This document shows, piece after piece, positions 34,814 to 57,149 of a DNA stretch of 64,000 nt. Both the position numbers and the translations under genes were made by a program. Origin of the DNA: Dehalococcoidia bacterium (GTDB taxonomy: Bacteria; Chloroflexota; Dehalococcoidia; Lucifugimonadales; Australimonadaceae). The notes below the pieces were generated by a model that saw only the letters and a program-made list of their open reading frames with translations, was not told the origin of the DNA and did no database searches. The stretch covers positions 547,362 to 611,361 of the forward strand of contig OZ220673.1 in the NCBI GenBank assembly GCA_965116305.1, given 5' to 3'. Within the stretch, counting starts at the first letter, position 1; each line of letters begins with the position of its first letter.

Positions 34814-35044
34814 TGACTTCCTCCTTGCCTGCGAGAGGTTACAGGTTCTCGCGAACCCGTGCGAACACTCCTGCGCGCCATGAGCGCATTGACCGTCCGC
34901 GCAGGAACGGCAAGAATCGCCGCCATCAAGGCTGCGGCTGAGGCGCTTTAGGCAACCTGTCTCCTTGACAGTCCTCATGCGCCGTTCGTAGCCTCCTACC
35001 CGCGTCAGGCGAGCGAACATGAGCGTAGTGCGGACCTTGGTCGA

Positions 35045-35656
35045 ATGAACAACGAACCCCCCCAGGTGGATGTCCGGCCCACCAAGCTACGCCAGACGTT
35101 CAGATGGACAGTGCAGACGCTGGCCCTCTTCGCCGTCTGGTTCGCGTTCTCCGGCCACACCGAGATCGAGTTCCTCATCATGGGCGCGGTCGCCGCAGTG
35201 GCCGGGACTGCGCTTACCCACTGGCTGTTCGCAGGCGACCAGGAAGCGCGTTTCAGGCATAAGCCATACCCGCCCTCGTGGTTCATCCCAGCCGTGTTCC
35301 GTACCGTCCTCTACGCGCCGTGGCTGCTGTGGGAGATCGCGCTCTCCAACCTGCACGTCGCCTACCTCGTGCTGCATCCCCGGCTGCCGGTGGAACCGAG
35401 CCTCGTGGAGTTCGAGACGTCTCTGCAGTCGGAAACTGCGCAGGTGCTACTTGCACAGTCCATCACTCTCACGCCCGGCACGGTAACGGTGGACGTTTCG
35501 AACGGGACGTTCATGGTGCACTGCCTCTCTGCCAAGAGCAGGCAGGGTATGGAAGAGGGAAACATCCAGCGCAAGGTGGCCGGGATATTCGCCGAGGAAG
35601 CGCCGGAGAGCGTGGCATTGACGGACGTGGTGGACGTGGAGCAGGTGCTGCCGTGA
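35045..35656 (+). CDS. mnhE: Na+/H+ antiporter subunit E (MrpE/MnhE; MbhA-like)
   Basis: 203 aa with AQSITLTPGTVTVDV, the MnhE signature. Confidence 0.85.
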   Translation: MNNEPPQVDVRPTKLRQTFRWTVQTLALFAVWFAFSGHTEIEFLIMGAVAAVAGTALTHWLFAGDQEARFRHKPYPPSWFIPAVFRTVLYAPWLLWEIALSNLHVAYLVLHPRLPVEPSLVEFETSLQSETAQVLLAQSITLTPGTVTVDVSNGTFMVHCLSAKSRQGMEEGNIQRKVAGIFAEEAPESVALTDVVDVEQVLP

Positions 35657-35958
35657 GCCTGCTGTTCACAGGCGTACTGGCCGGCGCCGTCCTCATCAAC
35701 ATCGGTCTGTTCTACAGGCTGGTGTTTGCCCCCACGGCGTTCGACCGCCTGCTGGCTGCAGGAGCGATCGGTACGAACGCAGTTGTACTACTCGTGCTCA
35801 CCGGGTTCGTGTTCGACCGGCCGGATATGTTTGTCGACCTTGCGCTGAGCTATGCACTGCTCAACTTCATCGGCACCGTTGCCGTGGGCAAGTACCTGGA
35901 GACGCGCCAGCACCAGTTGTGGTCGATGATCCGGAGCACGGAGGAAGAAGACGCATGA
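35653..35958 (+). CDS. mnhF: monovalent cation/H+ antiporter subunit F (MrpF/MnhF; MbhB-like)
   Basis: 101 aa, 3 TM, with ...APTAFDRLLAAGAIGT.... GTG start overlaps the mnhE stop (GTGA). Start by amino-acid counting in track ORF 35278-35958. Confidence 0.8.
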   Translation: MSLLFTGVLAGAVLINIGLFYRLVFAPTAFDRLLAAGAIGTNAVVLLVLTGFVFDRPDMFVDLALSYALLNFIGTVAVGKYLETRQHQLWSMIRSTEEEDA

Positions 35959-36266
35959 ACTTCCTTGACGTCCTGGACATCGCATTCATAGGTCTGGGGT
36001 TTGTCTTCATGGTGATCACGGTTCTGGGCATGCTGCGCCTGCCGGATTTCTTCGCCCGCGTGCATGCCGTCTCCAAATCGGAAACGCTGGGCATCACGCT
36101 GGTGCTCCTTGGGCTCATCATCCACCAGGGCGCCACCCTGGTGAGCCTCAAACTCGCGCTCATCCTGGTCTTCGTTGCGATAGCGAACCCCGTTGGAGCA
36201 CACCTGCTCACCCGGGCCGCGTTGCGTACAGGACAGATGCCCTGGCGGAAGGGGGACGGCGGATGA
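35955..36266 (+). CDS. mnhG: monovalent cation/H+ antiporter subunit G (MrpG/MnhG; MbhC-like)
   Basis: GMLRLPDFFARVHAVSKSETLG...ANPVGAHLL. ATGA overlap with mnhF. Confidence 0.85.
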   Translation: MNFLDVLDIAFIGLGFVFMVITVLGMLRLPDFFARVHAVSKSETLGITLVLLGLIIHQGATLVSLKLALILVFVAIANPVGAHLLTRAALRTGQMPWRKGDGG

Positions 36267-36508
36267 TCTGGTGGCTTGAGTTGTCGTTGTTCGGTCTGCT
36301 CGTGGTTGCTGCGCTGATCGCCCTCTCGGTCCGGGACATGATTGCGGCGGTAGCTACGCTGTCGGTGTACAGCTTCCTGGCCGCCGCGCTCCTCGCGCTG
36401 ATGGGTGCAGTCGACGTTGCCCTTACCGAAGCGGCGCTGGGCGCGGGCGTGACCGGCGTGTTGCTGATAGGGGCGGTCAGCGTCGTGGACAGGAGGACCC
36501 CGGATTGA
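36263..36508 (+). CDS. DUF4040/MbhD-like membrane protein (MrpB N-terminal-type fragment)
   Basis: 81 aa, 3 TM. Position and pattern match the MbhD-like subunit. Its start overlaps the mnhG stop. Confidence 0.7.
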   Translation: MIWWLELSLFGLLVVAALIALSVRDMIAAVATLSVYSFLAAALLALMGAVDVALTEAALGAGVTGVLLIGAVSVVDRRTPD

Positions 36509-36801
36509 AGCTGCTCATGCTGGCATTCCTCGCAGGGCTGGTTGCCCTGCTCATCTGGGCGTCGGCTGATCTGCCGGACCGCGCGGCCCCTGACGCACCT
36601 GCGAACGAGCGCCTCTCCCCGCAGTTGACGGAGTTGACGGAGTCCGAGGTCGTGATTCCGAACCTCGTCTCGGCCATCCTGGCCGACTTCCGGAGCTACG
36701 ACACGCTTGGAGAGACGTTCGTCATCTTCACCGCCGGCTTAGCCGTTCTCCTCGTGTTACAGCGCAGCCGCCGGGTCCCCGAGGAGGATGGGGATGAATG
36801 A
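36505..36801 (+). CDS. MbhE-like membrane protein (MnhB-related)
   Basis: 98 aa with NLVSAILADFRSYDTLGETFVIFTAGLAVLLVL, an MnhB-related motif. Confidence 0.7.
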   Translation: MKLLMLAFLAGLVALLIWASADLPDRAAPDAPANERLSPQLTELTESEVVIPNLVSAILADFRSYDTLGETFVIFTAGLAVLLVLQRSRRVPEEDGDE

Positions 36802-37249
36802 CCGTTATGACAGCGTGATACTCCACTTCATCGCGCGGGTGGTGATGACCCCGCTCATCATCGTGTTCGGCATCTACGTGCTGCTGCACGGCGAACTCAG
36901 CCCCGGCGGCGGCTTCCAGGCCGGAGCCATCGTCGCGGCTGCGCTTTTGCTGGTGCGTCTCGCTCTGGGCAACCGGCAGGCGGCCCTGCGGATACCGCAG
37001 GGGCTCCTCACTTGGCTGGCGTGCATCGGCCTCGGCATCTACATGTTCGGGGGTATCCTGCCGCTCATCCTCGGCGATAACTTCCTGGACTACGCCCAAA
37101 TCCCCGTGGAGTGGTACAACCAGTTCGCGGGCGAGGACCGCACCCATCGCGCGATGGGCATCCTCATCATCGAGATCGGTGTGTTCCTGGGCGTCGCATC
37201 TGTGCTGGTGCTCATCTACGACCTCATCGCGGGCAGTTCGCGCCAATGA
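36788..37249 (+). CDS. mnhB: Na+/H+ antiporter MnhB-domain subunit (MbhF-like)
   Basis: 153 aa with LHGELSPGGGFQAGAIVAAALLL, the MnhB signature. Confidence 0.85.
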   Translation: MGMNDRYDSVILHFIARVVMTPLIIVFGIYVLLHGELSPGGGFQAGAIVAAALLLVRLALGNRQAALRIPQGLLTWLACIGLGIYMFGGILPLILGDNFLDYAQIPVEWYNQFAGEDRTHRAMGILIIEIGVFLGVASVLVLIYDLIAGSSRQ

Positions 37250-37623
37250 TCGACGAGGTCGCAGCACGCTTCCCGTACTGGGCGACCGCGGTACTCCTCG
37301 TCGTTGGCCTCTACGGCATGATCGGCAAACGCAGCCTCGTGAAGCAGGTCATCGGCCTGAGCATCTTCCAGTCGGCCATCATCCTCTTCTTCATCAGCGG
37401 TTCCCTGCTGGAAGGGGCGACTCTCCCCATCCTCTACGACGTGCACGGGGGAGAGCATGCGAAACCGGAGGACTTCGTGAACCCGCTGCCTCACGTGCTC
37501 ATGCTCACCGCCATCGTCGTGGGGGTGGCGATCACCGGCGTGGCGCTCAGTTTCCTCGTCTCCATCTACCGTGAGTTCGGGACGCTCGACGAACGCGAGA
37601 TGCTGGACGAGATGAGGAAGTAG
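37246..37623 (+). CDS. mnhC: Na+/H+ antiporter subunit C (MrpC/NuoK-like; MbhG-like)
   Basis: 125 aa, 3 TM: LLVVGLYGMIGKRSLVKQVIGLSIFQSAIILFFI. ATGA overlap with the previous gene. Confidence 0.85.
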   Translation: MIDEVAARFPYWATAVLLVVGLYGMIGKRSLVKQVIGLSIFQSAIILFFISGSLLEGATLPILYDVHGGEHAKPEDFVNPLPHVLMLTAIVVGVAITGVALSFLVSIYREFGTLDEREMLDEMRK

Positions 37624-37625
37624 CC

Positions 37626-39194
37626 GTGGAGCAGCAACTCCCCGCCTTTATCGTCGGCGCGCCACTGCTGTTCTCAGTCGTTGTTCCCATCCTGGGGCGG
37701 AAGTGGCGGCAGAGCGCGTTCGTCATCGCGGTTGTGACTGTGGCGGTCTCAACCGTCGCGTCTGCGCTGTCCCTTGAGCGGGTGCTCCGCGACGGTGCGT
37801 TCCGTTACTGGCTCGGAGGTTGGGAGCCCGTCGGCATCAAGCAGGTGCCCATCGGCATCGAGTGGGTGATGGATGAAGTATCGGGGTTCGTCAGCCTCGT
37901 CGTCACGAGCGTGTCCCTGCTCGTCCTGGTCTCGACACGGCGTTGGGCCGAGCGCGAGGCGGGCGACCGCCCCGGCATCTTCTACGGCCTGGTGCTGCTG
38001 CTTCTGGCAGGACTGACCGGCATCGTCATCACAGGCGACCTCTTCAATCTGTTCGTCTTCCTGGAGATAGCGTCCCTCGCTGCTTACGCGCTCGTCTTCA
38101 TCGGCGGACGCAGGGCTATGCTTGCGGGTTTCCGCTACCTCATCATCGGCTCCATCGGCGGCGCGTTCTACCTGCTGGGCGTCGGATTCATCTACTTCGC
38201 GACCGGGACGCTGAACATGATTGAGGCGCGCCAGCTGCTGGAAGAGGCGGAGAGCACGAGGGCAGTGCAGGTGGGCGCGGTGTTCATCTTCACCGGCCTC
38301 GGCCTGAAGATGGCGCTTGTGCCGATGCATCTCTGGTTGCCGGACGCCTACGAGCATGCGCCCTCTTCCGTGAACTCGCTCATCGCCCCCGTGATGACGA
38401 AGGTTGCTGCCTACGCGATGCTCCGCATGTTCCTGAGCGTCTTCCCGGCCGGGTACCTCTCCGGCACCGTCCCCATCGCCGACGCGCTGCTCGTCCTCGG
38501 CCTCATCGGCATCGTGTTCGGCTCCGTCGCGGCGGCGGGGCAGACGGACATCCGGCGGATGCTGGCGTACAGCAGCATCAGCCAGCTTGCATTCATCGCC
38601 GTCGGCATCGGGCTGGGCACGCCGCTCGCGCTCGCCGCGGCGTTGCTGCACGTCGTCAACCACGCTGCCATGAAAGCGACGCTCTTCCTGGCGGCGGGTT
38701 CCGTGCGCCTCCGCGTCGGGTTGCAGCGCACCCACAACCTGGCGGGACTGGGCCCGCGCATGCCATTGACGATGGGCGCGTTCGCCGTTGGCTCCGTGGC
38801 GATGGTCGGCATCCCGCCCACGGCGGGTTTCTTCAGCAAGTGGTACATGGTGCAGGCGGGCGTCGATGGGGGCCAGTGGATCGTCGTGGCGGTGGTGCTG
38901 CTCAGCAGCCTGCTCACCGCCGTCTACCTGTTCAAGGTGCTCGAGCAGGTCTACCTGCGCCCCGCGAAACCCGAGCCCTCCGCTCACCACGACGATGAAC
39001 ACGATGCTCCTGCGGAGAGCGCGCAGCAGCCGGCCGAGCAACCGGCGATGCGTCCCGTAGTGGAGCGGGCGCGGGAGGCCCCTCTGGACGTCTGGCTTCC
39101 GCTGGTGCTGCTCGGCGCTGCGACTGTCGTCCTCGGCGTGTTCAACGTCGTCATCATGGAACACGTCCTGCTGCCGGGAGTGGAGGTGTCGTGA
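37626..39194 (+). CDS. mnhD: antiporter-like proton-translocating subunit (MrpD/NuoN-M family), copy 1
   Basis: 522 aa, polytopic, with LFVFLEIASLAAYALV, PMHLWLPDAYEHAPS and AYSSISQLAF. Confidence 0.88.
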   Translation: MEQQLPAFIVGAPLLFSVVVPILGRKWRQSAFVIAVVTVAVSTVASALSLERVLRDGAFRYWLGGWEPVGIKQVPIGIEWVMDEVSGFVSLVVTSVSLLVLVSTRRWAEREAGDRPGIFYGLVLLLLAGLTGIVITGDLFNLFVFLEIASLAAYALVFIGGRRAMLAGFRYLIIGSIGGAFYLLGVGFIYFATGTLNMIEARQLLEEAESTRAVQVGAVFIFTGLGLKMALVPMHLWLPDAYEHAPSSVNSLIAPVMTKVAAYAMLRMFLSVFPAGYLSGTVPIADALLVLGLIGIVFGSVAAAGQTDIRRMLAYSSISQLAFIAVGIGLGTPLALAAALLHVVNHAAMKATLFLAAGSVRLRVGLQRTHNLAGLGPRMPLTMGAFAVGSVAMVGIPPTAGFFSKWYMVQAGVDGGQWIVVAVVLLSSLLTAVYLFKVLEQVYLRPAKPEPSAHHDDEHDAPAESAQQPAEQPAMRPVVERAREAPLDVWLPLVLLGAATVVLGVFNVVIMEHVLLPGVEVS

Positions 39195-40708
39195 ACGAGA
39201 CCACCACATCCGCCTTACCGCTCGTCGCCGTCCTCGTTCCGGTGGGCGCCGCCTTGCTCGCGTCACTTACTACGGGACGCTGGCCGAACCTGCGCGACAT
39301 GTGGGCAACGATCGCTGGCATTGCCATGGTGGTCATCGCCGTGTTGATGCTTACCGACACGTTGGATGGCCGCATCCACCGGACGGTGCTCCTGGAGCTC
39401 TCGCCCGGCATCGACATCGCGCTGCGCGCTGACCCCGCGGGCATGATCTTCGGGCTGCTCGTCTCCGTCCTCTGGGTGCTGGCTGGGGTCTATGCGGTTG
39501 GCTACATGAGGGGGGAACACGAGCAGAAGCAGACGCGTTTCTTCGCTGCGTTCGCGTTGAGCATCGCTGCCGCCGCGGGTGTCGCGCTCGCGGAGAACCT
39601 GCTCACGTTCGTCCTCTTCTACGAACTGCTCTCGCTCTTCACGTACCCGCTGGTGACGCACCGGGAGACGGAGACCGCGCTGGTCGCCGGTCGGAAGTAC
39701 CTTGCGTACACGCTCTCCGGCGGCCTGATGCTCATCGGTGCGACGGCCTGGCTGCACGTATTGGGCGTTGATGCCACGTTCCAAGCGGGCGGGTTCCTCG
39801 ATGGCGCGGGGTTGGACGGCGTGGAGCAGTGGGGGCTGTTCGTGCTGCTCGCGGGGGGCGTGGGCGTGAAGGCCGCGGTGATGCCGCTGCACAGCTGGCT
39901 GCCGAGCGCGATGGTCGCACCGACGCCGGTATCGGCGCTGCTGCATGCCGTCGCCGTCGTCAAGGCGGGCGTGTTCGGCATGGTGCGGGTAGGGGTGTTC
40001 GTGTTTGGCGCGTCGCTGCTGGACGACATGGGCGCGTGGCTCGTGCTCGCCGTCATGTCCGCCGGAACCCTCCTCATCGCCTCGATACTCGCGCTGCGCC
40101 ACGACAACCTCAAGCGGCGGCTGGCCTACTCGACCATCAGCCACCTCTCCTACATCGTGCTTGGCGTCGCGCTCATCGGGCCGCTGGCACTCACCGGCGC
40201 GCTGCTCCATATCGTGGGGCATGGCGTCACCAAGATCACCCTCTTCTTCGTGGCGGGCGCCATACACGTGCGAACCCACAAGGAGAATGTGAGCGAACTG
40301 GACGGCATCGGACGTCAGATGCCTGTAACGATGGGCTCCTTCGCACTCGCGTCGCTCAGCATGGTCGGCATCCCGCCGTTCATCCTCTTCACGAGCAAGT
40401 TCTACCTTGGCTGGGGCGCGGTGGAGGTCGACCAGCAGATATTCCTCATCGTCTACCTCGTCAGCGGACTGATCGCCGCAGGCTATCTCTTCCCCATCGT
40501 CATCCGAGCGTTCCTGCGTTCGTCGCCTGACCACACGCGGTACGGCGAGGCAGACATACGCATGGTCGCGCCCATCGCGGTGACGGCTGTTCTGGCGCTG
40601 GTCTGGGGCGTCGCACCGGACCTGCCGCTCGGCTTCTTCGAACTCGCGTCGACCGTTGCTGATGCCGCCTTCCCGCAGTCTGTTGCGCTCGCCGGAGGGA
40701 CCCCATGA
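39191..40708 (+). CDS. mnhD: antiporter-like proton-translocating subunit (MrpD/NuoM family), copy 2
   Basis: 505 aa with FVLFYELLSLFTYPLV, PLHSWLPSAMVAPTPVSALLHAVAVVKAG and AYSTISHLSYI. Confidence 0.88.
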   Translation: MNETTTSALPLVAVLVPVGAALLASLTTGRWPNLRDMWATIAGIAMVVIAVLMLTDTLDGRIHRTVLLELSPGIDIALRADPAGMIFGLLVSVLWVLAGVYAVGYMRGEHEQKQTRFFAAFALSIAAAAGVALAENLLTFVLFYELLSLFTYPLVTHRETETALVAGRKYLAYTLSGGLMLIGATAWLHVLGVDATFQAGGFLDGAGLDGVEQWGLFVLLAGGVGVKAAVMPLHSWLPSAMVAPTPVSALLHAVAVVKAGVFGMVRVGVFVFGASLLDDMGAWLVLAVMSAGTLLIASILALRHDNLKRRLAYSTISHLSYIVLGVALIGPLALTGALLHIVGHGVTKITLFFVAGAIHVRTHKENVSELDGIGRQMPVTMGSFALASLSMVGIPPFILFTSKFYLGWGAVEVDQQIFLIVYLVSGLIAAGYLFPIVIRAFLRSSPDHTRYGEADIRMVAPIAVTAVLALVWGVAPDLPLGFFELASTVADAAFPQSVALAGGTP

Positions 40709-40968
40709 TCATCGACCGTCCTCTCCTGATCGCAATCGTCATCGGTGTCGCGCTCTCTGCCGTGCTCGAGCTGTTCTTCGTCGGCCATCGTGAGTTCCTC
40801 TTCGCAGGCAGCGACCTGCTCCTGTTCTGGGTGGGGTTCGGCCTCGTGGGCTGCATCGGCATCGTCGTCATCTCCAAGTGGATCGGCCACACCTTCCTGA
40901 TGAAGCACGACGACCCGTACACCGGCGAACATGTGGAGGCTGAGCCGGAGGAGGCAAGCCATGGCTAG
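40705..40968 (+). CDS. small membrane protein of the Mrp-like cluster (hypothetical)
   Basis: 87 aa, 2 predicted TM helices plus an acidic tail. Overlaps both neighbouring genes. Confidence 0.55.
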   Translation: MIIDRPLLIAIVIGVALSAVLELFFVGHREFLFAGSDLLLFWVGFGLVGCIGIVVISKWIGHTFLMKHDDPYTGEHVEAEPEEASHG

Positions 40969-42724
40969 CTTCCTTCCTGTCTTCCCTCCTGTCGTCATCA
41001 TGGTCGTCGCGGCGGTGCTCGTCGCGCTGAGCCCCGTGAGCATCATCCGCAAGGCCGTCGCGGTCGGCGCGCCACTGCTCGTCCTCGTCCAGTTGATATG
41101 GGGCCTCGACGCGGGCGACTCCTGGACGTTCACTTGGCTCTTCCTCGAACTCGAGCCGCTGCGCGCCGACGCCTTGAGCCTCGTGTTCGGGTACGTCTTC
41201 GCGCTCGCCGCCGCGCTCGGAGGGATCTACGCCTGGCACCTCGAGGACCGTTACCAGCAGGCTGCCGCTCTTGGCTACGCCGGTACGTCGATAGGAGTCG
41301 TCTTCGCCGGGGACCTGCTGACGCTGGTGCTCTTCTGGGAGCTGATGGCGCTCACGTCCGCCTACCTCGTCTGGGCGGGAGGCTATCCCGGCTCGCGCAG
41401 CGCGGGCACGCGCTACCTGTTCGTGCACATGGTCGGCGGCAGCACGCTGCTGGCTGGCGTCCTCTGGCACCTGGGGACCGGCGGTTCGCTCGAATTCTCG
41501 TTTTTCACAGAAGGCACGGTTGCCGGCTGGCTGGTCCTCGGAGGCTTCGCCATCAACGCTGCGATCGTTCCGCTGCACGCATGGCTGACCGATGCCTACC
41601 CGGAGGCCGGGGTCACCGGCAGCGTGTTCCTGAGCGCCTTCACCACCAAGACGGCGGTCTACGTCCTCGCGCGCGGCTTCCCCGGCTGGGAGATCCTCAT
41701 CTTCCTCGGCGTCATCATGGCCCTGTACGGCGTCGTCTTTGCGGTGCTGGAGAACGACATCCGTCGCCTGCTCGCGTACCACATCATCAGCCAGGTGGGG
41801 TACATGGTGGCCGCCGTGGGCATCGGCACCGAGATCGCCATCAACGGCGCCGTCTCCCACGCCTTCGCCCACGTCATCTACAAGGGCCTGCTGTTCATGG
41901 GTGCCGGCGCAGCGGTCTATGCCACCGGCCGCCGCACGCTTACTGCCCTTGGCGGCATATCCGACCGCATGCGGCTGGTCGTCGTGCTGTACATGGTTGG
42001 CGCTTTCGCCATCTCGGCGTTCCCGCTGTTCAGCGGCTTCGTGTCCAAGTCGCTGGTCATCTACGGGGCTGAGAAAGAGCACATCTACTGGGCTGTCGCC
42101 CTGCTTTACCTCGCGTCGGTGGGGACATTCCTGCACACCGGCCTCAAGCTCCCGTACTTCACCTGGTTCGGGCCGAGGCGGGACGACATCCACGTCGGCC
42201 CCGTGCCCCGCGGGATGATCGTGGCGATGGTCCTGGCCGCAGCCTTGTGCATCGGCATCGGCGTGTACCCCACCGCGCTGTACGACCAGCTGCCGTTCAC
42301 GAACACCTATGAGCCGTACTACGCCGACCACGTGGTGCGGACGCTCCAGATGCTCGGCTTCACGGCGGTGGGCTTCTGGCTGCTGCGAGGCAAGCTGGGC
42401 GGCGAGGCGACGATCACCATCGATACGGACTGGGTCTATCGGAAGGCCGGGCCGCTCGTACGCGTTCTGATACAGACGCCACTGGAAGCCGTATTCACCT
42501 TCTTCGAACGCCTCGTTGGAGCGCTTGCACGGCGCGCCAGCGTCCTCGCCGTTGCCCCGGCGACAGGCTGGGCCCGCCTGTTGTTGCTCAGCGCCTACGC
42601 ACGTGAACGCGGGCCGGACGATGCGCTCGCGTTCCTTGGACGTCCGCCTGTCGGTATCGCGCTTGCCGCCATCCTGTTGACGTTCGTTGCCGTGGTGCTC
42701 GCCGCGCAGGCGCTCGGCGGGTAG
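40961..42724 (+). CDS. antiporter-like proton-translocating subunit (MrpA/D, NuoL-M family), copy 3
   Basis: About 587 aa from ATG 40961 (GGAGGAGG upstream), with LFWELMALTSAYLV, PLHAWLTDAYPEAGVTGSVFLSAFTTKTAVY and AYHIISQVGYM. Confidence 0.88.
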   Translation: MASFLPVFPPVVIMVVAAVLVALSPVSIIRKAVAVGAPLLVLVQLIWGLDAGDSWTFTWLFLELEPLRADALSLVFGYVFALAAALGGIYAWHLEDRYQQAAALGYAGTSIGVVFAGDLLTLVLFWELMALTSAYLVWAGGYPGSRSAGTRYLFVHMVGGSTLLAGVLWHLGTGGSLEFSFFTEGTVAGWLVLGGFAINAAIVPLHAWLTDAYPEAGVTGSVFLSAFTTKTAVYVLARGFPGWEILIFLGVIMALYGVVFAVLENDIRRLLAYHIISQVGYMVAAVGIGTEIAINGAVSHAFAHVIYKGLLFMGAGAAVYATGRRTLTALGGISDRMRLVVVLYMVGAFAISAFPLFSGFVSKSLVIYGAEKEHIYWAVALLYLASVGTFLHTGLKLPYFTWFGPRRDDIHVGPVPRGMIVAMVLAAALCIGIGVYPTALYDQLPFTNTYEPYYADHVVRTLQMLGFTAVGFWLLRGKLGGEATITIDTDWVYRKAGPLVRVLIQTPLEAVFTFFERLVGALARRASVLAVAPATGWARLLLLSAYARERGPDDALAFLGRPPVGIALAAILLTFVAVVLAAQALGG

Positions 42725-42731
42725 GGTGGGA

Positions 42732-42737
42732 TAGAAT
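42732..42737 (+). promoter_or_regulatory. candidate -10 hexamer TAGAAT upstream of ychF
   Basis: Lies 56 nt upstream of the TTG start at 42793. There is no adjacent TGn. Confidence 0.25.
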
Positions 42738-42792
42738 CGAGAGCGGTCCCGCTGGTGGCGGGGCGCTATCTTCCCCTCGTGAGGTCCGCTCC

Positions 42793-43893
42793 TTGGCCAT
42801 CGGTATATTCGGCCTGCCGCTCTCCGGCAAGACCACCATCTTCAACGCCGTGACGCGCGGCCACGCCGAGACCGCGTCCTTCCGCAGCGGTGCGTCGCAA
42901 CCCAACATCGGCGTTGCCAAGGTGCCGGACCCTCGCCTCGACGTGCTCGCTGAGATCTCGAAACCGAAGCGCATCGTCCACGCGGAGGTCGAATACATCG
43001 ACATACCCGCCGCGCCGGAGGGCTTCGGCAAGACGAAGGGCATCGGCGGCGAGTATCTCAACCTCCTCCAGCGCTGCGATGCCCTGCTGCTCGTGGCGCG
43101 TGCTTTCGACGACCCCTCCGTGCCGCATGTGCAGGAGACGGTCGACCCCTACCGCGACGCCGCGACGCTGGAACTCGAACTCACCTTCTCCGACCTCGCC
43201 ATCCTTGAACGGAGGCAGGAGCGCATCGCCTCACAGCTGCGCTCGGCGCGGCAGGCGGAGCGCGACCTGCTGACGCGTGAGCAGCACGTCCTTGGTCTCA
43301 TCCGCGCCGGGCTGGAGAACGAGGTGCCCGTCCGTGAGCAGACCCTGCCTATTGAGGCGAAGCCCTTCCTGGACAACTTCCAACTGCTCACCGCCAAGCC
43401 GCTCATCGTGGTCTTCAACGTCGGCGAGGACACCATCGAGGATGCGGACACGATTGAGGGGGAGATGCGCGAACGGCTCGCGCGGCCGGGCGTGGGCGCC
43501 GCGGCGCTCTGCGGCAAACTGGAGGCCGATCTCGCGCAGATGGAACCGGAGGATGAGGCCGAGTTCCGTGAGTCGCTCGGCGCGGGCGAGCCGGGACTCG
43601 ACCGCATGATTAACCTCTCCTACGACCTGCTCGGCCTCATCTCGTTCCTGACGACCGGCGAGGACGAGACCCGTGCGTGGACGATCACGAAGGGCATGAG
43701 CGCGGTGGAAGCGGCGGGCAAGATACACTCGGACATCCAACGCGGCTTCATCCGCGCCGAGGTCGTTGCCTACGATGACCTCGCCCGCACGCGCAGTATC
43801 CCCGAGGCGCGCAAGCAGGCGCTCCTCCGCACCGAGGGCAAGACCTACACGATGCGCGACGGCGACGTCGTCAACTTCCTGTTCAACGTCTAG
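42793..43893 (+). CDS. ychF: redox-regulated ATPase YchF
   Basis: 366 aa with P-loop GLPLSGKTT, a TGS-like C-terminus and the typical ending DGDVVNFLFNV. TTG start. Confidence 0.93.
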   Translation: MAIGIFGLPLSGKTTIFNAVTRGHAETASFRSGASQPNIGVAKVPDPRLDVLAEISKPKRIVHAEVEYIDIPAAPEGFGKTKGIGGEYLNLLQRCDALLLVARAFDDPSVPHVQETVDPYRDAATLELELTFSDLAILERRQERIASQLRSARQAERDLLTREQHVLGLIRAGLENEVPVREQTLPIEAKPFLDNFQLLTAKPLIVVFNVGEDTIEDADTIEGEMRERLARPGVGAAALCGKLEADLAQMEPEDEAEFRESLGAGEPGLDRMINLSYDLLGLISFLTTGEDETRAWTITKGMSAVEAAGKIHSDIQRGFIRAEVVAYDDLARTRSIPEARKQALLRTEGKTYTMRDGDVVNFLFNV

Positions 43894-51456: not shown

Positions 51457-51500
51457 CGACCAAGGGGGCCAACACCCGTGAATTCTGGCCCCCTTGGTCG
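51457..51500. repeat. perfect 14-bp inverted repeat CGACCAAGGGGGCC-N16-GGCCCCCTTGGTCG
   Basis: A third direct copy CGACCAAGGGGGC lies at 51587-51599, with degenerate copies (ggccaccttggcc, gccttggttggggg) at 51532-51558. A separate 9-bp inverted repeat pairs cccatagac (51635-51643) with gtctatggg (51679-51687). Confidence 0.85.
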
Positions 51501-51916
51501 CTGGTCCACGAGTAAACCGGCCTGTCCATTTGGCCACCTTGGCCGCCTTGGTTGGGGGCGTTTCCCAGGCCATGGCCTGCTTCCCGCGACCAAGGGGGCA
51601 AGGGGGCCATCGAAAACAAAAGTTGTCGCCCTAACCCATAGACCTCGTTGATAGGTTGGACCGCGAGCTATAGACGCAGTCTATGGGTGCTGCCGGTACG
51701 ACGGTCATGCAATCAGCGTACGCGGGCAGGGCGCAACCGCGAAAGGGGCGGGTGTCACAGCGGGGGGCATAGTTGACCCTGCTCTTCGCTCGCGTGATAC
51801 TAGCCCCGCAAACGCCAGATCGGAGAAGTCAACCCCTAGTGCAGTCAACCCACGCCCCACCACGACGAGAACGGCAGCGCAGACTCCGGCGTGCCTACTC
51901 GACAGATTTGGGGACC

Positions 51917-52780
51917 ATGTTCATCGGGACTGCCGAGCAGGCGTTCAAAAGCTCCCGGTTTGAGAAGTATCTTTCCTCCGCTCAACTGATCTTCACCTCC
52001 CCGCCGTTCCCACTCAACCGAAAGAAGGCATACGGGAATCTCACCGGTGAGGCTTATGTTGATTGGCTCGCCAGCTTCGCTTCCCAGTTCAAGAGATACC
52101 TACGCGATGACGGGTCGATCGTCATTGAGATAGGCAATGCCTGGGAACAAGGTCATCCAACCATGTCAACGCTGGCCCTAGAGGCACTATTGAGGTTTCG
52201 CAAGGATGGCGACCTGTTCCTGTGCCAGCAGTTTGTTTGCGCCAATCCGGCGCGGCTTCCGTCTCCAGCACAATGGGTCAACGTAGATCGAACCCGCCTC
52301 AAGGATGCCTTCACAAACGTTTGGTGGATGTCCCCAACGGAACGACCCAAGGCGGACAACCGTAGGGTATTGTCGCCTTATAGCTCTGCAATGCAAGGGC
52401 TTCTACGAACCCAGCACTACAATGCGGGCAAGCGTCCCTCAGAACACTCTATTGGAGCTGAGTCATTCCTAACGGACAACGGAGGAGCCATCCCTTCCAA
52501 CGTAATCACAGTTTCCAACACAAGTGCCACCGACCCGTACCAGCAATACTGCAGAGATACTGGCATTCAACCACATCCAGCGAGGATGCCATCACGGCTT
52601 GCTGAGTTCTTTATCGAGTTCCTTACAGAACCGGGGGACTTGGTGATAGACCCATTTGGGGGAAGCAACGTGACTGGCGCAGCGGCAGAGTCACTTGGCC
52701 GTCAATGGGTGACTATTGAACCGGTAGAATTATACGCGGCAGCCTCTAAGAGTCGGTTCGTTCATGCCGATGGAAAATAA
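51917..52780 (+). CDS. beta-class DNA N4-cytosine methyltransferase, M.PvuII family
   Basis: Collinear, as far as I recall the M.PvuII sequence, with: MFIG...TSPPFPLNRKKAYGN..GEAYVDW, NPARLPSPAQWVN, KDAFTNVWW, LSPYS, RPSEHSIG...DNGGAIPSN, HPARMPSRLAEFFIEFLTEPGDLVIDPFGGSNVTG. Motif IV (SPPF) precedes motif I (FGGSN.TG). The track ORF opens at TTG 51773 and GTG 51839 is also possible. ATG 51917 aligns with the internal Met start of M.PvuII. Confidence 0.9.
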   Translation: MFIGTAEQAFKSSRFEKYLSSAQLIFTSPPFPLNRKKAYGNLTGEAYVDWLASFASQFKRYLRDDGSIVIEIGNAWEQGHPTMSTLALEALLRFRKDGDLFLCQQFVCANPARLPSPAQWVNVDRTRLKDAFTNVWWMSPTERPKADNRRVLSPYSSAMQGLLRTQHYNAGKRPSEHSIGAESFLTDNGGAIPSNVITVSNTSATDPYQQYCRDTGIQPHPARMPSRLAEFFIEFLTEPGDLVIDPFGGSNVTGAAAESLGRQWVTIEPVELYAAASKSRFVHADGK

Positions 52781-52843: not shown

Positions 52844-55099
52844 ATGCTTACATACGGCGCAACCAAGTACTTTGACGTTGACCCTAACCAAATCATCGTC
52901 GACGCCCGTAGCTTCGCTAGCTGGCGAAATGGCTTGCCTGAGTGGATAAAGAACTCTAGCGACGCCTACGACAGAGCCGGAGCACTGAGCGCGGACCGTG
53001 TTGTCGTGGTCATACTTGCACCCGCAGGCAAAGATGGATCGCCTGTGTTGGCTTGTCTGGACTTTGTAGGTATGACCTCTGATGACCTCATCGACAAACT
53101 CGCTCGGTACGGTGACCCTGAAGCCTCAGGATCTGGGACTCATGTCGTCGGCGGTCACGGTAACGGGGGCAAGCTGTTCGCCGTCGGCGGCTTCAAGGGC
53201 GACGTGGTCTGGCGAACCATAAAGCACGGTTTCCGCAGTGAGTACGGATTGGCAGAGCCCGGTCGCCCCGCTCTAGCCTTCGTGCTGGACGACATTGGTG
53301 AGGTTAAGGATCGGCCGTGCACGGACCTACCTTCCACTCTCAATGAATGGCTCAGAGCATTGAGTCTCTCGGTTGCAGATCTCCCGGCGGCCGCCCAAGC
53401 CGCTGCTCAGAGGGCAGACGGTGTTACTCTCGTGTGTGGTGCCCGTTCCGAACAATCATTCCAAATCCATGATAGTTTGATTCTAAATACTCTGCGCAGC
53501 CACCCACAATGTAAGACGCCGTTGGAGACCACTAAGCTATTTGTCGTAGCCAATGGGAAACTGTCAAATGGAGGTGCCGCACTCACCTTAGACGAAATCA
53601 CGCCCTATGAGGGATTCTCTGAACCTCTAACTGTATCTATACCACTTAGCCTGAACGATCCTTTTGGCCAGTCTCCTGTATCGACAACAGCTGGAGGTGC
53701 GCAGGGCACTCTAGAGCTCCGTACGTCAGATAAGCAGATGCCAGGAATGAAGGCCTTGCAAGGACGCCACACCATTGACTTCAAGCAGGGTTCGCGAATA
53801 CGAGGCAGTCGTTCAGTTAGGGAACTTGTTAGCAAGGGTCCTTTCACCGACCGCATCTACGGGCAATGCCAGCTGGATGCGTTGGTAGAGTCCTATGAAT
53901 CACAGACACGTGGTCCGCTTGTGGAGAGTCCGCTTGTACGTGCACTAGAAGAATGGGTAGGGGAACAGATTCTCACCTATGCCGATAAGATTCAGCAGGC
54001 ATCCATGGTGCAGGATAAGGCAACTAAAGACGAGGAGAAGATAAGGCGCCTCACCCAGCAGATGGCGAAGTTGAATCGTTGGATCAACCGCATCGTCGAC
54101 GAGCTTAGCCCAGGTGCCGGCGATGACCCAGATTGGGGAGGTGGGGGCAAGAAAACTGGAGGGACTCGATATCCTCTTCCTCTCGCACCAGTTGGCAGAA
54201 TAGCGATAGCCATAGACGAGAAGGTTGCAGGAGCCAAAGTTCCATTGGAATTCTCAACCTCCTTCTTTGGACTCGATGATGTCACTCAGGTCAGGCCTGT
54301 CAGCGTCGTTTGGCATTCGAGCAACCCACCTATCGCCGCATATAGCAACGTTACCGACATGGTCAATACATACCAGCCAGGAACAGCTGAGATATGGTGT
54401 GAATCGTCTACGGGAGTCGTCTCAAATCGCATAGAACTTAGGGTAATCGATTGTGATCGCATCGAACTGAGTGCCGCAACTATAGACGTTCCCATAGGCC
54501 GACGTCGTCATGTCTGGGCCACAGGAATCACTGCTGCAGGCGAAAGGCATGAAGGGATTCGCGTAAACTGGACCACGGATTCCAGTGATATTCTTCGAGT
54601 GGGACTTGCGGGTGTTATCACTGGGCTCAGCGAAGGAACTGCAACCGTGACAGCCAAGGAAGGAGATGGGACAGCAGCAAGCTGCTTGGTAACGGTAGTA
54701 CCAGCGCCAGAAGGCCCAGGAGGTCCCAACAGGCCGAGATACCTCCTGTCTGAAGTACAAAAGGCCCCCTACGACGAAGAGCCGCCCGTATTCCACAAGG
54801 ATAGTGGGTTGGTCACTCAGCGACAGGTCGATATTGAGCACAACGTCTGGTGGATTAATCTGGCCAGCCCTCTTGCACGACTCGTGTATGACCAACACGG
54901 TGAAGTGTCGGAGCAATGGGCCATGTATCTCGGGGAGAGGATAGCTGACGCAGCGATAGAAGCGGCCATGCAAGGCGCCGACCGCGGCGTCGAGAGCCGA
55001 CCTGTCAACGAGGTGCTAGAGGAAGTTTCGCAGCTGCGGATGCAGATTCTAGACAGCTTTACGCAAGAATTCGGAGCAACTAAACAGCTGGTGTTGTGA
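52844..55099 (+). CDS. GHKL (Bergerat-fold, MORC/MutL-like) ATPase fused to two Big_2 Ig-like domains; novel architecture
   Basis: 751 aa. N box EWIKNSSDAYD (ExxxNxxD, aa 33-43), G1-like LDFVGMTSDDL (aa 72-82) and G2 GGHGNGGKLF (aa 103-112). Coiled-coil aa about 385-420. Big_2 #1 is VSVVWHSSNPPIAAYSNVTDMVNTYQPGTAEIWCES...IELRV (aa about 452-535). Big_2 #2 is IRVNWTTDSSDILRVGLAGVITGLSEGTATVTAKEGDGTAASCLVTVV (aa about 538-619). The helical C-terminus is unrecognised. No signal peptide or TM. Confidence 0.75.
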   Translation: MLTYGATKYFDVDPNQIIVDARSFASWRNGLPEWIKNSSDAYDRAGALSADRVVVVILAPAGKDGSPVLACLDFVGMTSDDLIDKLARYGDPEASGSGTHVVGGHGNGGKLFAVGGFKGDVVWRTIKHGFRSEYGLAEPGRPALAFVLDDIGEVKDRPCTDLPSTLNEWLRALSLSVADLPAAAQAAAQRADGVTLVCGARSEQSFQIHDSLILNTLRSHPQCKTPLETTKLFVVANGKLSNGGAALTLDEITPYEGFSEPLTVSIPLSLNDPFGQSPVSTTAGGAQGTLELRTSDKQMPGMKALQGRHTIDFKQGSRIRGSRSVRELVSKGPFTDRIYGQCQLDALVESYESQTRGPLVESPLVRALEEWVGEQILTYADKIQQASMVQDKATKDEEKIRRLTQQMAKLNRWINRIVDELSPGAGDDPDWGGGGKKTGGTRYPLPLAPVGRIAIAIDEKVAGAKVPLEFSTSFFGLDDVTQVRPVSVVWHSSNPPIAAYSNVTDMVNTYQPGTAEIWCESSTGVVSNRIELRVIDCDRIELSAATIDVPIGRRRHVWATGITAAGERHEGIRVNWTTDSSDILRVGLAGVITGLSEGTATVTAKEGDGTAASCLVTVVPAPEGPGGPNRPRYLLSEVQKAPYDEEPPVFHKDSGLVTQRQVDIEHNVWWINLASPLARLVYDQHGEVSEQWAMYLGERIADAAIEAAMQGADRGVESRPVNEVLEEVSQLRMQILDSFTQEFGATKQLVL

Positions 55100-55106
55100 G
55101 GCGCTG

Positions 55107-55787
55107 ATGATCACGAAACACGAGAAAGTACTGGTCAGTGCCTTTAGACGATGGCCAGAACAGTCGTTTAGCGCAGAGGATCTTGTAGTCGCTTGTTGGA
55201 AAGAATACCCCGAGGATTTCGGACTTCAAGGTTACGAGAACTTATACCCTGATGCTAACGTCATTTATCGATATATCATGGGTCAGAATTCTATAGTGAA
55301 GAAACATAAATGGTTGCTTCAGACGCGAAGCAAAACCTATCGGCTGTCCACACAGGGCGCCTCCCATGTGCTGGCCCTGCTTGGAGACAGCCAGTCGACT
55401 GAAGATGGTCAACGACTGAGGATAGAACGCGCTCGTGAGGCTGTGTTGGCACGCCTACTCCGCAGTCGAGCGTGGATGAAGTACCAAAGGGGTGAGGAAA
55501 TTGTGTTCCGAGAAGCCTGCATGTTTTGGGGTATCATTCCTCGTTCAGCAGGCGAGGAATATCGCTTCGCCCGCAAGGAACTAGCGGACTCACTGTCGCT
55601 AGCCGAGGAGCGCATTCATCAGGCTCAGACATCCGAACTTTGGGTTCCTGAAGCTAACCGCTCCATCGACAACGAGACCCTGAACCAGCTCCGTAGCCTT
55701 GACACTGAACTTGTCCAGACATTCGCAGATGAAGTCGCAGGCATCGTCGGAAGAGTCATTGACCGAGGTCGGCTGAAGCAGGCTTAG
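55107..55787 (+). CDS. hypothetical protein; winged-helix-like N-terminus plus helical C-terminal half
   Basis: 226 aa. The start is 7 nt after the GHKL stop, with a GAGG SD overlapping that stop. The N-terminal about 90 aa has a helix-helix-helix-hairpin pattern (KVLVSAFRRW...SAEDLVVACWKEYP...NVIYRYIMG...KHKWLLQTRSKTYRLSTQG). No catalytic motif recognised. Confidence 0.7.
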   Translation: MITKHEKVLVSAFRRWPEQSFSAEDLVVACWKEYPEDFGLQGYENLYPDANVIYRYIMGQNSIVKKHKWLLQTRSKTYRLSTQGASHVLALLGDSQSTEDGQRLRIERAREAVLARLLRSRAWMKYQRGEEIVFREACMFWGIIPRSAGEEYRFARKELADSLSLAEERIHQAQTSELWVPEANRSIDNETLNQLRSLDTELVQTFADEVAGIVGRVIDRGRLKQA

Positions 55788-55835: not shown

Positions 55836-56969
55836 GTGATGGAGGCTAAGTTGGCAATTGGCCATTCCGAATCGACCGTGCACGAAATGCTGTCCACGGC
55901 CCCGGTGGATTGGGAGTCAACTCTAGATGCAATTCTAGCTCTAAGCTCATGGCGTGGAGGATTATCAAACCAGAACCATGAGATTCTGACGCGGCGTTTC
56001 GGGCTTGTCTCAGGAGAAGTCGAGACGCTTGAGGCTATCGGTAAAGATCTAGGAATTACCCGTGAACGTGTGAGGCAGATCCAAGCTAAGGCTCTTCGCC
56101 GAATTCGACCGCGCATCGATTCGGTCAAGTCCTACGGCACACTTACTTCACTGGTACGAGAGGAGGTAGCTAGGCAGGGCGGTGCCCTCCGGAAAGAAGG
56201 CGTTCTTGCCTTGCTCGATTCAGGGAAGCAATCTCTACGCTACCGTCCAGACATGGCCATAGCTTTTATGCTGTGGATGTCACCCCTATTGATTGAGTTA
56301 CCCAAGAAGGCCAGCAATCGATGGATCGTGTATGCCTCTAAAGAAGTAGCTTCCCAACTGACGACTGTAACCAAGCGCATCCATGAGTATCTCCGAAGAA
56401 GAGGACCACTCGAACGCCTTCGCCTAGTGGGAGATATCACGAACGATGAGGAGGAAGCAGCGGCTGTATCTGCTGCGCTTGCCGTTGACGTGGCAACAAC
56501 CGAGAGTGAAGGGTATGTGTGGTTGGTCAATTCGCCGAGATGGCATTTCGTCGTGGCCAGTGTACGACAGATTGGGACTTCCGCGCACTTTATGGAAATC
56601 ACCCGCCGAGTCAACGATAAGCTAACCCCCGACAACCGAATGACAGAGCGTGCAGTGCACGCCATCCTCGGAAATTATGAGCCGACAGTCTTTAGAAGGG
56701 TTGGTCTTGGAACGTTCGGTTTGGCCGAATGGGGTCTCCCGGCGGCGAAGGATAGCGTAGACCTTGTATGCCAAATCCTTGAAGGCGAGACTGCTTGGCT
56801 CACCACTCAACAGATTGTCGTGAAGGCGCGCTCTCTCGGGTGGCGAACCAAGCCGGAGAGTATTGTTATTGCACTCGACTTGGAGGACCAACGACCCAAC
56901 CGGCGCGTACGCCGGGTAGGACCAGCCACCTCTATCAGGTATGGACTGAGTTGGTGGAACGACCCTTAG
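55836..56969 (+). CDS. sigma-70 region-4 HTH protein with two C-terminal HARE-HTH-like winged-helix domains
   Basis: 377 aa. LSNQNHEILTRRFGLVSGEVETLEAIGKDLGITRERVRQIQAKALRRIR is a textbook sigma-70 region 4.2, but regions 2 and 3 are absent. HFMEITRRVNDKL...VFRRVGLGTFGLAEWG and WLTTQQIVVKARSLG...VRRVGPATSIRYGLSWW match the HARE-HTH ending (R-h-G-x-G-x-a-x-L-x-x-W). Confidence 0.8.
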   Translation: MMEAKLAIGHSESTVHEMLSTAPVDWESTLDAILALSSWRGGLSNQNHEILTRRFGLVSGEVETLEAIGKDLGITRERVRQIQAKALRRIRPRIDSVKSYGTLTSLVREEVARQGGALRKEGVLALLDSGKQSLRYRPDMAIAFMLWMSPLLIELPKKASNRWIVYASKEVASQLTTVTKRIHEYLRRRGPLERLRLVGDITNDEEEAAAVSAALAVDVATTESEGYVWLVNSPRWHFVVASVRQIGTSAHFMEITRRVNDKLTPDNRMTERAVHAILGNYEPTVFRRVGLGTFGLAEWGLPAAKDSVDLVCQILEGETAWLTTQQIVVKARSLGWRTKPESIVIALDLEDQRPNRRVRRVGPATSIRYGLSWWNDP

Positions 56970-57149
56970 TTGAGCCCTGGCGCTCCCCACTCCACTGACA
57001 CGCGCCCCTTACGCAATCGCCCCACGACCTCGTACGCTGGTCGGTGATGGCGCGCCGCCGTCGAGGCTAGCCCCGGCTCGGGGGTCAGGGCGTGCCTAGC
57101 GCGTGCAGGAGTGGCGTGGCCCACAATGGCGCAGTTTGGCACACTTTGG

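Follow-up and report, generated by a model that had tools for sequence, protein, structure and literature searches.

A predicted GHKL ATPase with a tandem immunoglobulin-like insert, encoded beside a DNA methyltransferase in a mobile cassette of a Dehalococcoidia bacterium

Here we describe a four-gene cassette in a 64,000-nucleotide (nt) stretch of the genome of a Dehalococcoidia bacterium (contig OZ220673.1; the whole stretch is referred to below as the window). Its second gene, an open reading frame (ORF) at positions 52844 to 55099 of the forward strand, encodes a 751-amino-acid (aa) protein that we predict to be a divergent GHKL ATPase, in which an S5-type transducer, a long helix, two immunoglobulin (Ig)-like Big_2 domains and an acidic C-terminal domain follow a Bergerat fold. 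The other three genes encode a DNA methyltransferase, a 226-aa partner protein and a 377-aa protein with a sigma-70 region 4 helix-turn-helix (HTH). The cassette has been acquired horizontally and is mobile, and its ATPase appears to represent a sixth, paraMORC-like GHKL family, distinguished by the Ig insert and by a new partner. In its gene content the cassette resembles a restriction-modification-type system for which no description was found and in which no nuclease was recognized. We think it probable, if well short of assured, that these proteins constitute a methylation-linked, DNA-directed GHKL system of the defense type.

RESULTS

ATP-binding motifs and predicted fold of the ATPase

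The ORF begins with ATG, and both its start and its end are supported by at least 12 homologues that share a length of 750 to 753 aa; the closest homologue (97% identity) is a hypothetical protein of a Chloroflexi metagenome-assembled genome. A previous reading of the window, made from the sequence alone, had placed three Bergerat boxes in the N-terminal part of the protein and had warned that the second of these, the G1 box, is noncanonical, and our results bear out both statements. Motif I (the N box, ExxxNxxD) is represented by EWIKNSSD at residues 33 to 40 (E33/N37/D40), the region of motif II by LDFVGM at residues 72 to 77 (D73/G76), and motif III (the G2 box or ATP lid, GxxGxG) by GGHGNGGK at residues 103 to 110 (G103-G-H-G106-N-G108-G-K110). 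Conservation was counted in an alignment of 64 sequences (A1) and in one of 74 sequences that spans the two clades of the family described below, with identities down to 23 to 30%. E33, K36, N37, D73, G76 and G103 to K110 are kept in 73 or 74 of the 74 full-length relatives from both clades (D73, G76 and the lid in all 74, E33 and N37 in 73), and the boxes are thus not a chance occurrence. A candidate for motif IV, G193-V-T195, lies at a plausible position past the lid, with T195 kept in 71/74. The lid motif, G-x-x-G-N-G-x-K, is one that we take to resemble that of MORC. The residues of the ATP site are invariant, and the protein is predicted to be an active ATPase.

The G1 box, DFVGM, is one residue shorter than the consensus DxGxG(M). 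In hhalign alignments, DF-VGM pairs with DSGIGM of Hsp90 across a one-residue gap, and the first Gly of DxGxG is not kept. We interpret this oddity as a one-residue deletion that retains the invariant, adenine-contacting Asp. A profile of the GHKL and S5 regions aligned weakly with single sequences of yeast Hsp82 (E value of 0.022), with motif I on ELISNASDA and the motifs in register, and of MutL (E value of 0.1); the Hsp82 and MutL sequences used here may contain errors, and we regard these alignments as supporting evidence. Neither the window protein nor its 64 relatives matched HATPase_c, HATPase_c_3 or related Pfam models at an E value of 0.01 or below, the same profile retrieved nothing from the PDB sequences, and searches with phmmer and with a profile of the full family gave no GHKL match. 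Pfam, NCBIfam and PADLOC were applied to the 64 relatives and to clade B members as well as to the window protein; apart from Big_2, they yielded a single GHKL match, that of one relative from clade B (locus L060) to HATPase_c_3 at 3e-4, below threshold (21.3 bits against a cutoff of 25).

A structural model of the ATPase, predicted with AlphaFold2 (AF2) on alignment A1, has a mean predicted local distance difference test (pLDDT) score of 83.9. Comparison of this predicted model with known structures by Foldseek identifies a Bergerat fold with a probability of 1.00, E values of 3.6e-9 to 1e-6 and alignments of 420 to 460 columns. The matches include MORC2, MORC3, MORC4, Hsp90, TRAP1, GRP94, HtpG, SMCHD1 and GyrB, all over the ATPase plus the transducer, and at a probability of 1.00 the model matched over 30 GHKL-plus-transducer structures, drawn from four families. 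With its S5-type transducer, the protein belongs with gyrase, Hsp90, MutL and MORC in the ATPase branch of the superfamily and not with the kinases. R356 of the S5 domain is kept in 74/74 sequences and may be the sensor residue. The transducer is followed by a single helix of 59 residues, as assigned by DSSP, and by a Gly-rich linker whose pLDDT falls below 50 at residues 423 to 443. The C-terminal domain is alpha/beta in the AF2 model and strongly acidic (mean charge of -7.1), with conserved residues P631, S636, P642, Q659, D663, W670, I671 and N672, which fit no PD-(D/E)xK, HNH, GIY-YIG or Toprim pattern; the domain may serve in dimerization or in docking of the partner. The motifs and the model together support the assignment of the protein as a divergent GHKL ATPase with a Bergerat fold.

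A tandem pair of Big_2 Ig-like domains

In the AF2 model, two beta-sandwich domains, with the approximate boundaries given in Table 1, stand between the linker and the C-terminal domain. The window protein itself scores 22.7 bits against Pfam Big_2 (PF02368), for which the cutoff is 22.8, and does so over the C-terminal half of the second domain (Ig2) only. At the level of the family the relationship is clear: 53 of the 64 members match Big_2 at an E value of 0.01 or below (best, 2.9e-14), the family profile matches, in the PDB, a teneurin-like protein with tandem Big_2 repeats (4.5e-25) as well as LigA, LigB, Hoc-like and SbsC entries, and the Ig fold is matched by Foldseek to LigA (3.1e-11) and SbsC. 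No transmembrane segment or signal peptide was found in the ATPase, whose N terminus is polar and whose 19-residue Kyte-Doolittle means reach at most 1.52; because it has no hydrophobic segment, the protein is cytoplasmic as far as its sequence tells. The description given in the sequence-only reading, that of a GHKL ATPase in the cytoplasm, free of signal peptide and transmembrane segment and fused to two Big_2 domains, therefore agrees with the motifs, with the AF2 model and its Foldseek matches, with the hydropathy and with the family-level evidence for Big_2.

The same reading went on to propose that the Ig modules sense a phage protein or a glycan rather than DNA, and this part was not supported in the form proposed, in view of the methylation context of the genes, the existence of an Ig-less sister clade and the lack of hypervariability. 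Among all pairs of family members, mean identities are 0.35 and 0.32 for the two Ig domains versus 0.39 for the ATPase, and among close relatives they are 0.65 and 0.63 versus 0.60. The Ig domains thus evolve at about the rate of the ATPase, which is not the pattern expected of a sensor engaged in an arms race. Both are net acidic (the mean charge of Ig2 is -3.7, and it is positive in 3% of members), which argues against direct binding to the DNA backbone and leaves a protein ligand possible. With hidden Markov models (HMMs) of the individual domains, the first domain (Ig1) and Ig2 were detected in all members of clade A and in none of clade B, so that the core machine can do without them. A role of the Ig pair as a spacer or arm, or as a docking site for another subunit, fits these observations best; a conserved foreign or host protein is a possible ligand, and these domains might conceivably sense a phage protein, an idea to which the data lend no support.

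The family and its gene neighborhoods

Relatives of the ATPase number 179 among 185,579 species representatives (approximately 0.1%) and are distributed over many phyla; in a set of 1.84 billion representatives, the family takes up 246 clusters at 50% identity. The family is thus rare, and no curated model names the ATPase. None of 50,697 phage records matches the family, and a phage origin of the ATPase was accordingly discarded. We retrieved 88 related loci, of which 84 were analyzed together with the window (85 in total) by ORF calling, with HMMs of the four window proteins and by clustering of neighbors. Loci with at least 3 kb of flanking sequence on both sides are termed well flanked below and number 30 in clade A and 23 in clade B. 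Clade A, with 50 loci including the window, has the order GHKL, S5, helix, Ig, Ig and C-terminal domain. The 35 loci of clade B keep the GHKL, S5, helix and C-terminal domains and have a spacer of about 55 or about 140 residues in place of the Ig pair.

The partner adjoins the ATPase in 76/85 loci. It lies directly downstream of the ATPase in 28/30 well-flanked loci of clade A and directly upstream in 22/23 of those of clade B, and the pair is nearly obligate. An N6_N4 methyltransferase is present in 26/30 well-flanked clade A loci, where it is found upstream or downstream and on either strand; as its position and strand vary, the linkage is not inherited synteny. The catalytic motif IV reads SPPF in all 36 of the clade-A-linked methyltransferases of this lineage in which the motif is recognizable. 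Among the well-flanked clade B loci, a C5 methyltransferase occurs in 15/23, an N6_N4 enzyme in 3/23 and either of the two in 16/23, and Vsr is often fused to the C5 methyltransferases or encoded after them.

Domains of the type that reads DNA modification (HARE-HTH, Mrr_N and a fused MTaX1) recur around the family. In some clade A loci, an Mrr_N protein or a 209-aa upstream protein replaces the gene for the sigma-70 region 4/HARE-HTH protein. In one member, P0199 (L089:1996-5058; 1,020 aa), the GHKL-Ig protein is preceded by an MTaX1 (methylase-associated X1) domain fused to its N terminus (3.9e-10), and no methyltransferase was found on the 10-kb contig of this member. We examined whether this N-terminal extension could be a fused partner; it proved to be the MTaX1 domain and not the partner. 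In restriction-modification (R-M) systems, MTaX1 has been reported as a potential discriminator of modified DNA (PMC10853773). In clade B, large proteins composed of RNA polymerase (RNAP) alpha C-terminal domain (alpha-CTD), sigma-70 region 4 and HARE-HTH modules are encoded in 18/23 well-flanked loci, some of them with DnaA_C or GyrA_C. Such large proteins, with the alpha-CTD often in two copies, stand beside C5 methyltransferases and Vsr in L059, L061, L075, L083, L084 and other clade B loci; the DnaA C-terminal HTH and the repeats of the GyrA C-terminal beta-pinwheel were seen in single cases.

The neighbors of the ATPase are often integrases and transposases, and one locus lies on a conjugative plasmid. 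This locus (L088) is on plasmid pCTYH.Ch1_3 of a cultured strain, Ensifer adhaerens CTYH.Ch1 (NZ_CP118613.1, 59460 to 62548), and encodes WP_275028150.1 (800 aa) and WP_127664459.1 (229 aa), both annotated as hypothetical proteins. The pair adjoins a trio, consisting of an N6_N4 methyltransferase, a 410-aa protein and a 583-aa AAA_5 ATPase, that recurs in L001. In a 50%-identical relative (L087:8415-10049), the ATPase and partner genes are separated by an inserted DDE_Tnp_1 transposase gene, and a second insertion sequence and a Mu-like transposase lie just downstream, so that this cassette is being broken up. A PIN-domain protein of about 130 aa (2.7e-19 in L007) is encoded directly upstream of the ATPase in L007, L013, L023, L032, L034 and L046, and may be a toxin-antitoxin neighbor or an RNase component of those clade A variants.

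The cassette in the window

Four genes on the same strand, separated by intergenic gaps of 64, 7 and 48 nt, fill an island at about 51.5 to 57 kb with a GC content of 0.53 to 0.55 versus 0.65 to 0.72 around it (Table 1). The genes that flank the cassette are ordinary ones, encoding an amidohydrolase and a PQQ-like beta-propeller protein. In the sub-clade to which the window belongs, the four genes travel as a unit: the same order is repeated in L085 (82% identity) and in L086 (71%), the latter in a clearly different genomic flank. The island, the operon partners, the S5 transducer and the acidic C-terminal domain were all absent from the sequence-only reading.

Table 1. Features of the cassette and of its ATPase, in coordinates of the window
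Feature	Coordinates	Strand	Basis or remark
Left arm of 44-nt imperfect inverted repeat	51714..51757	.	77% complementary to 56996-57039; left edge of island
DNA methyltransferase, beta-class N6_N4, SPPF motif IV	51773..52780	+	Pfam, PADLOC, motifs
GHKL (Bergerat-fold) ATPase domain, residues 1-235 (predicted)	52844..53548	+	Motifs, AF2 model, Foldseek
S5-fold transducer, residues 236-362; R356 is a candidate phosphate sensor	53549..53929	+	Foldseek span, R356 conservation
Long helix, residues 363-421, then Gly-rich disordered linker, residues 422-447	53930..54184	+	DSSP, pLDDT
Two Big_2 Ig-like domains, Ig1 (residues 448-536) and Ig2 (residues 537-620)	54185..54703	+	AF2, profiles, Foldseek
Conserved acidic C-terminal domain, residues 631-751, plus stop codon	54734..55099	+	Both clades
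226-aa partner, basic N-terminal winged-helix-like domain and helical C-terminal domain	55107..55787	+	7 nt past ATPase stop
377-aa protein, sigma-70 region 4 HTH (residues 42-91) and HARE-HTH-like C-terminal repeat(s)	55836..56969	+	Pfam
Right arm of 44-nt imperfect inverted repeat	56996..57039	.	Right edge of island

The methyltransferase matches Pfam N6_N4_Mtase at 1.5e-29 and PADLOC MTase_II at 1.9e-90, and its translation carries the SPPF catalytic motif and the S-adenosylmethionine (AdoMet) motif FGGSNVTG. Judged from the sequence, its true start is probably the ATG at 51917.

The 226-aa partner has no family match in Pfam, PADLOC or NCBIfam. An alignment of its relatives (A2) displays a winged-helix-like N terminus, in which a recognition helix after a conserved YPDSN is followed by a wing of the pattern KKGxLxKxGxKxYxLT, and five members of the partner family weakly match HTH_45. 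Its AF2 model, based on a shallow alignment, has a pLDDT of 76 and is poor in the N-terminal part; no significant match among PDB folds was obtained, the best being to PadR (0.55) and to the MukF and JetA kleisins (0.8 to 1.2). Assignment of the partner as a PD-DExK nuclease, prompted by a PADLOC match of 0.014, was rejected, as this match overlaps the apparent recognition helix and wing of the winged helix. Both halves of the protein are basic, with mean charges of +3.3 and +2.4. The charge pattern suggests that the partner is a DNA-binding subunit that docks on the acidic C-terminal domain of the ATPase. The 377-aa protein matches Sigma70_r4 at 2.2e-12 and HARE-HTH at 0.046, below threshold; HARE-HTH is clear in its relatives, and there is a weak second match to L083.

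The 44-nt inverted repeat at the edges of the island may represent the terminal repeats of a mobile cassette without a transposase of its own. It is not reproduced in L085 or L001, and the cassette of L086 is bracketed by a different inverted repeat of 22 nt (86%). In the intergenic region upstream of the cassette (51457 to 51602), a perfect 15-nt palindrome, CGACCAAGGGGGCCA / TGGCCCCCTTGGTCG, encloses a 14-nt loop, and a third copy of its GACCAAGGGGGC core lies approximately 90 nt beyond it; the palindrome could be a terminator or an element at the insertion site resembling repetitive extragenic palindromic sequences or miniature inverted-repeat transposable elements. Elsewhere in the window, the GC content dips to 0.61 between 10000 and 13000, with a GC skew of -0.17 to -0.22, and the AT skew is near -0.2 over about 35 to 43 kb (35000 to 43000).

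DISCUSSION

A probable methylation-linked system directed at DNA

Our results identify a family of predicted ATPases that is tied to a partner and surrounded by DNA methyltransferases and by reader-type domains. A methylation-linked, DNA-directed GHKL system with a role in defense is the general interpretation that we favor, with moderate confidence. In such a system, the methyltransferase would mark the DNA of the host, and the partner together with the reader-type HTH protein (or Mrr_N or MTaX1 modules) would bring the ATPase to DNA according to its cytosine methylation state, thereby allowing self to be discriminated from nonself. On binding ATP, the GHKL dimer would close as a clamp by which DNA is trapped or looped, as in the MORC, MutL and topoisomerase ATPases. 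The ATPase would act on unmodified DNA, and foreign DNA of this kind would either be blocked by clamping or compaction or be passed to a nuclease encoded elsewhere. The Ig pair, located between the ATPase and the C-terminal domain, would serve as an arm specific to its clade, a spacer or protein-docking module outside the core. Any specific output step is much less probable than the general interpretation.

Several observations weigh against this interpretation. In the four genes of the cassette, profile and fold searches detected neither a nuclease nor a helicase nor any other domain of an effector, and PADLOC contains no model for the ATPase or the partner. The window ATPase gave no GHKL match in Pfam, NCBIfam or PADLOC, and because the sequence models are silent, the GHKL assignment rests on the motifs, the predicted structure and the weak profile alignments. 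A methyltransferase was lacking from the retrieved flank in 4/30 well-flanked loci of clade A and 7/23 of clade B. The specificity of the window methyltransferase is likewise a prediction, made from its motif IV of the form SPPF, which in beta-class enzymes indicates a preference for N4 of cytosine.

Relation to known GHKL and defense systems

R-M operons encode the GHKL-plus-S5 ATPases known as prokaryotic MORC and paraMORC1 to paraMORC5, in many cases together with a cytosine methylase and Vsr (Iyer, Abhiman and Aravind 2008, PMC2292703). HATPase_c_3 and the other Pfam GHKL models do not detect the family described here, which sets it apart from these ATPases. It shares with paraMORC a GHKL and an S5 domain with conserved ATP motifs, family-specific C-terminal extensions, a sporadic and mobile distribution, operon-linked DNA methylases (26/30 in clade A and 16/23 in clade B) and, in its Ig-less clade, Vsr. 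Like MORC proper, it has a conserved basic residue in S5, the invariant R356, whose function as a sensor would be analogous; unlike MORC proper, it lacks the S5 motif GhXhhpXXRhl, which was found in 0/74 members with a regular expression (motif from PMC2292703). The window protein has none of the signatures of paraMORC2 (ExxxH), paraMORC3 (a RecB-like nuclease), paraMORC4 (TIR) or paraMORC5 (HxH), and these signatures set the family apart from paraMORC2 to paraMORC5; the signature of paraMORC1 is a "distinct C-terminal extension" (PMC2292703). In contrast to paraMORC operons, the window cassette contains no superfamily 2 (SF2) helicase or endonuclease, and it adds the Ig insert and the near-obligate winged-helix partner, neither of which is found in PMC2292703, where no Ig or Big domains are mentioned. 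Searches of the literature likewise returned no description of this family or of a GHKL-plus-Ig architecture, in line with the earlier supposition that the domain combination was undescribed.

Among eukaryotic proteins, MORC2, MORC3, MORC4 and SMCHD1 (PDB 9cdh, 5ix2, 6o1e, 7k7t and 6mw7) are among the closest structural matches of the predicted model over the GHKL and transducer regions, with E values of 3.6e-9 to 5e-7 and target-normalized template modeling scores of 0.38 to 0.56, and eukaryotic MORC shares with the family a link to an epigenetic mark. Sequence identity to MORC and SMCHD1 is, however, 11 to 15%, CW, chromo and hinge domains are absent, the readers are located on separate proteins, and the helix follows S5 instead of being inserted in the GHKL domain. 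MZA systems (a sigma-70-like MzaA, a MutL-like GHKL protein, Z1 and AIPR) also place a GHKL ATPase alongside a sigma-70 region 4 protein. The 377-aa protein matches MzaA at 1.1e-9 in PADLOC and 3.1e-12 in NCBIfam, within region 4 only (approximately 50 to 60 residues; 46 bits against a cutoff of 800), but the cassette contains no Z1 or AIPR gene and the window ATPase matches no PADLOC model.

In VcSduA, the GHKL-Shedu protein of Vibrio cholerae, one polypeptide carries a C-terminal DUF4263 PD-(D/E)xK nuclease (PMC12137116), whereas the window protein carries Ig domains and no recognized nuclease and shares its operon with a methyltransferase. The cassette as interpreted here has in common with BREX and Dnd self-marking by modification, the absence of a classical restriction endonuclease and an Ig-like cytoplasmic component, which in those systems has been proposed to sense invaders (PMC12839542). 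A cytoplasmic Ig-like domain is therefore not unprecedented, as such domains have been noted on PglZ and DndH (PMC12839542). The cassette differs from BREX and Dnd in that it is far smaller, has no homologues of PglZ, BrxC, BrxL or PglX and uses a GHKL and not a P-loop ATPase. As in type II R-M systems, the methyltransferase has the catalytic SPPF and an AdoMet motif; unlike in those systems, searches of the three other proteins of the cassette detected no nuclease family or fold that could represent a cognate endonuclease.

Alternative explanations

The Ig domains might have a phage protein or glycan as their ligand, for instance a component of the capsid or tail, with the GHKL ATPase acting as a switch to an immune output and DNA being secondary. 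Structural and decoration proteins of phages are typical carriers of Big_2 domains, the acidity of the Ig domains makes them unlikely binders of the DNA backbone, and binding to proteins of the invader has been suggested for the cytoplasmic beta-sandwich or Ig-like domains of PglZ and DndH (PMC12839542). Such a sensor would, however, be expected to vary more than the ATPase, which the Ig domains do not. The Ig-less sister clade retains the ATPase, the C-terminal domain, the partner and the linkage to methyltransferases, the cassette holds no effector domain that could deliver the output, and the recurrent neighbors are all DNA-modifying or DNA-binding proteins. We therefore regard this explanation as improbable.

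It is likewise doubtful that the cassette is a nonimmune module of a mobile element, be it a MutL-like helper that deals, in the manner of very-short-patch repair, with lesions or mismatches produced by the cytosine methyltransferase of the element itself, or an epigenetic regulator or addiction module that works through the sigma-70 region 4/HARE-HTH protein. MutL stimulates Vsr in Escherichia coli, and the association of the clade B ATPases with Dcm-type methyltransferases, to which Vsr is often fused or adjacent, would be in keeping with a repair function. The presence of transcription-factor domains in the third type of gene (sigma-70 region 4, RNAP alpha-CTD and DnaA_C) and the lack of a nuclease in the window cassette would also be accounted for. 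Clade A, including the window, nevertheless has no Vsr and N4-type methyltransferases instead, and N4-methylcytosine, unlike 5-methylcytosine, does not deaminate to a normal base mismatch. The patchy spread of the family over many phyla, islands and plasmids resembles that of defense cargo, and Mrr_N, MTaX1 and HARE-HTH are domains characteristic of restriction systems.

If the protein were a GHKL-like scaffold without catalytic activity, or if the GHKL assignment had been created by motif reading and structure prediction, this would explain why Pfam, NCBIfam and the PDB sequences yield no GHKL match and why the G1 box lacks one residue relative to DxGxG. Such an explanation is very unlikely given that the ATP-binding residues are invariant in 74 sequences at identities as low as 23 to 30%, that Foldseek reaches a probability of 1.00 with more than 30 structures of four families, that motifs I and II line up with those of Hsp90 in hhalign and that one relative has a subthreshold match to HATPase_c_3. 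The presence of Big_2 and the NCBI name of one homologue ("Ig-like domain-containing protein") might suggest an adhesin that is secreted, or else a structural or decoration protein of a phage, but this is scarcely credible for a protein with an N-terminal ATPase, no signal peptide or transmembrane segment, no match in 50,697 phage records and an operon shared with a methyltransferase and HTH proteins.

Implications

A bolder form of the methylation-linked, DNA-directed interpretation, which we offer tentatively and consider rather unlikely, is that of a nuclease-free immune or epigenetic system in which a MORC-like clamp, guided by winged-helix and HARE-HTH readers of cytosine methylation, traps incoming unmethylated DNA and silences it. 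This would make the family a bacterial counterpart, and possibly a forerunner, of eukaryotic MORC silencing, with the Ig pair as a second, protein-sensing input.

GHKL-plus-S5 ATPases were predicted in 2008 to act in restriction-modification, and our searches of the literature found little experimental work on bacterial MORC-type proteins; the family described here has been unseen by curated models. It offers a compact and testable set of a writer, a clamp, an adaptor and a reader, in which the Ig-less sister clade is a natural control and a homologue is available on the conjugative plasmid of the cultured E. adhaerens CTYH.Ch1. Should the cassette turn out to be an accessory of ordinary R-M, it would still provide the tools that search for defense systems with a GHKL family that has so far lacked annotation and with a partner family that is new. 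If, on the other hand, restriction without a nuclease proved true, it would show how a MORC-type clamp makes use of methylation marks and would tie bacterial immunity to MORC silencing in eukaryotes.

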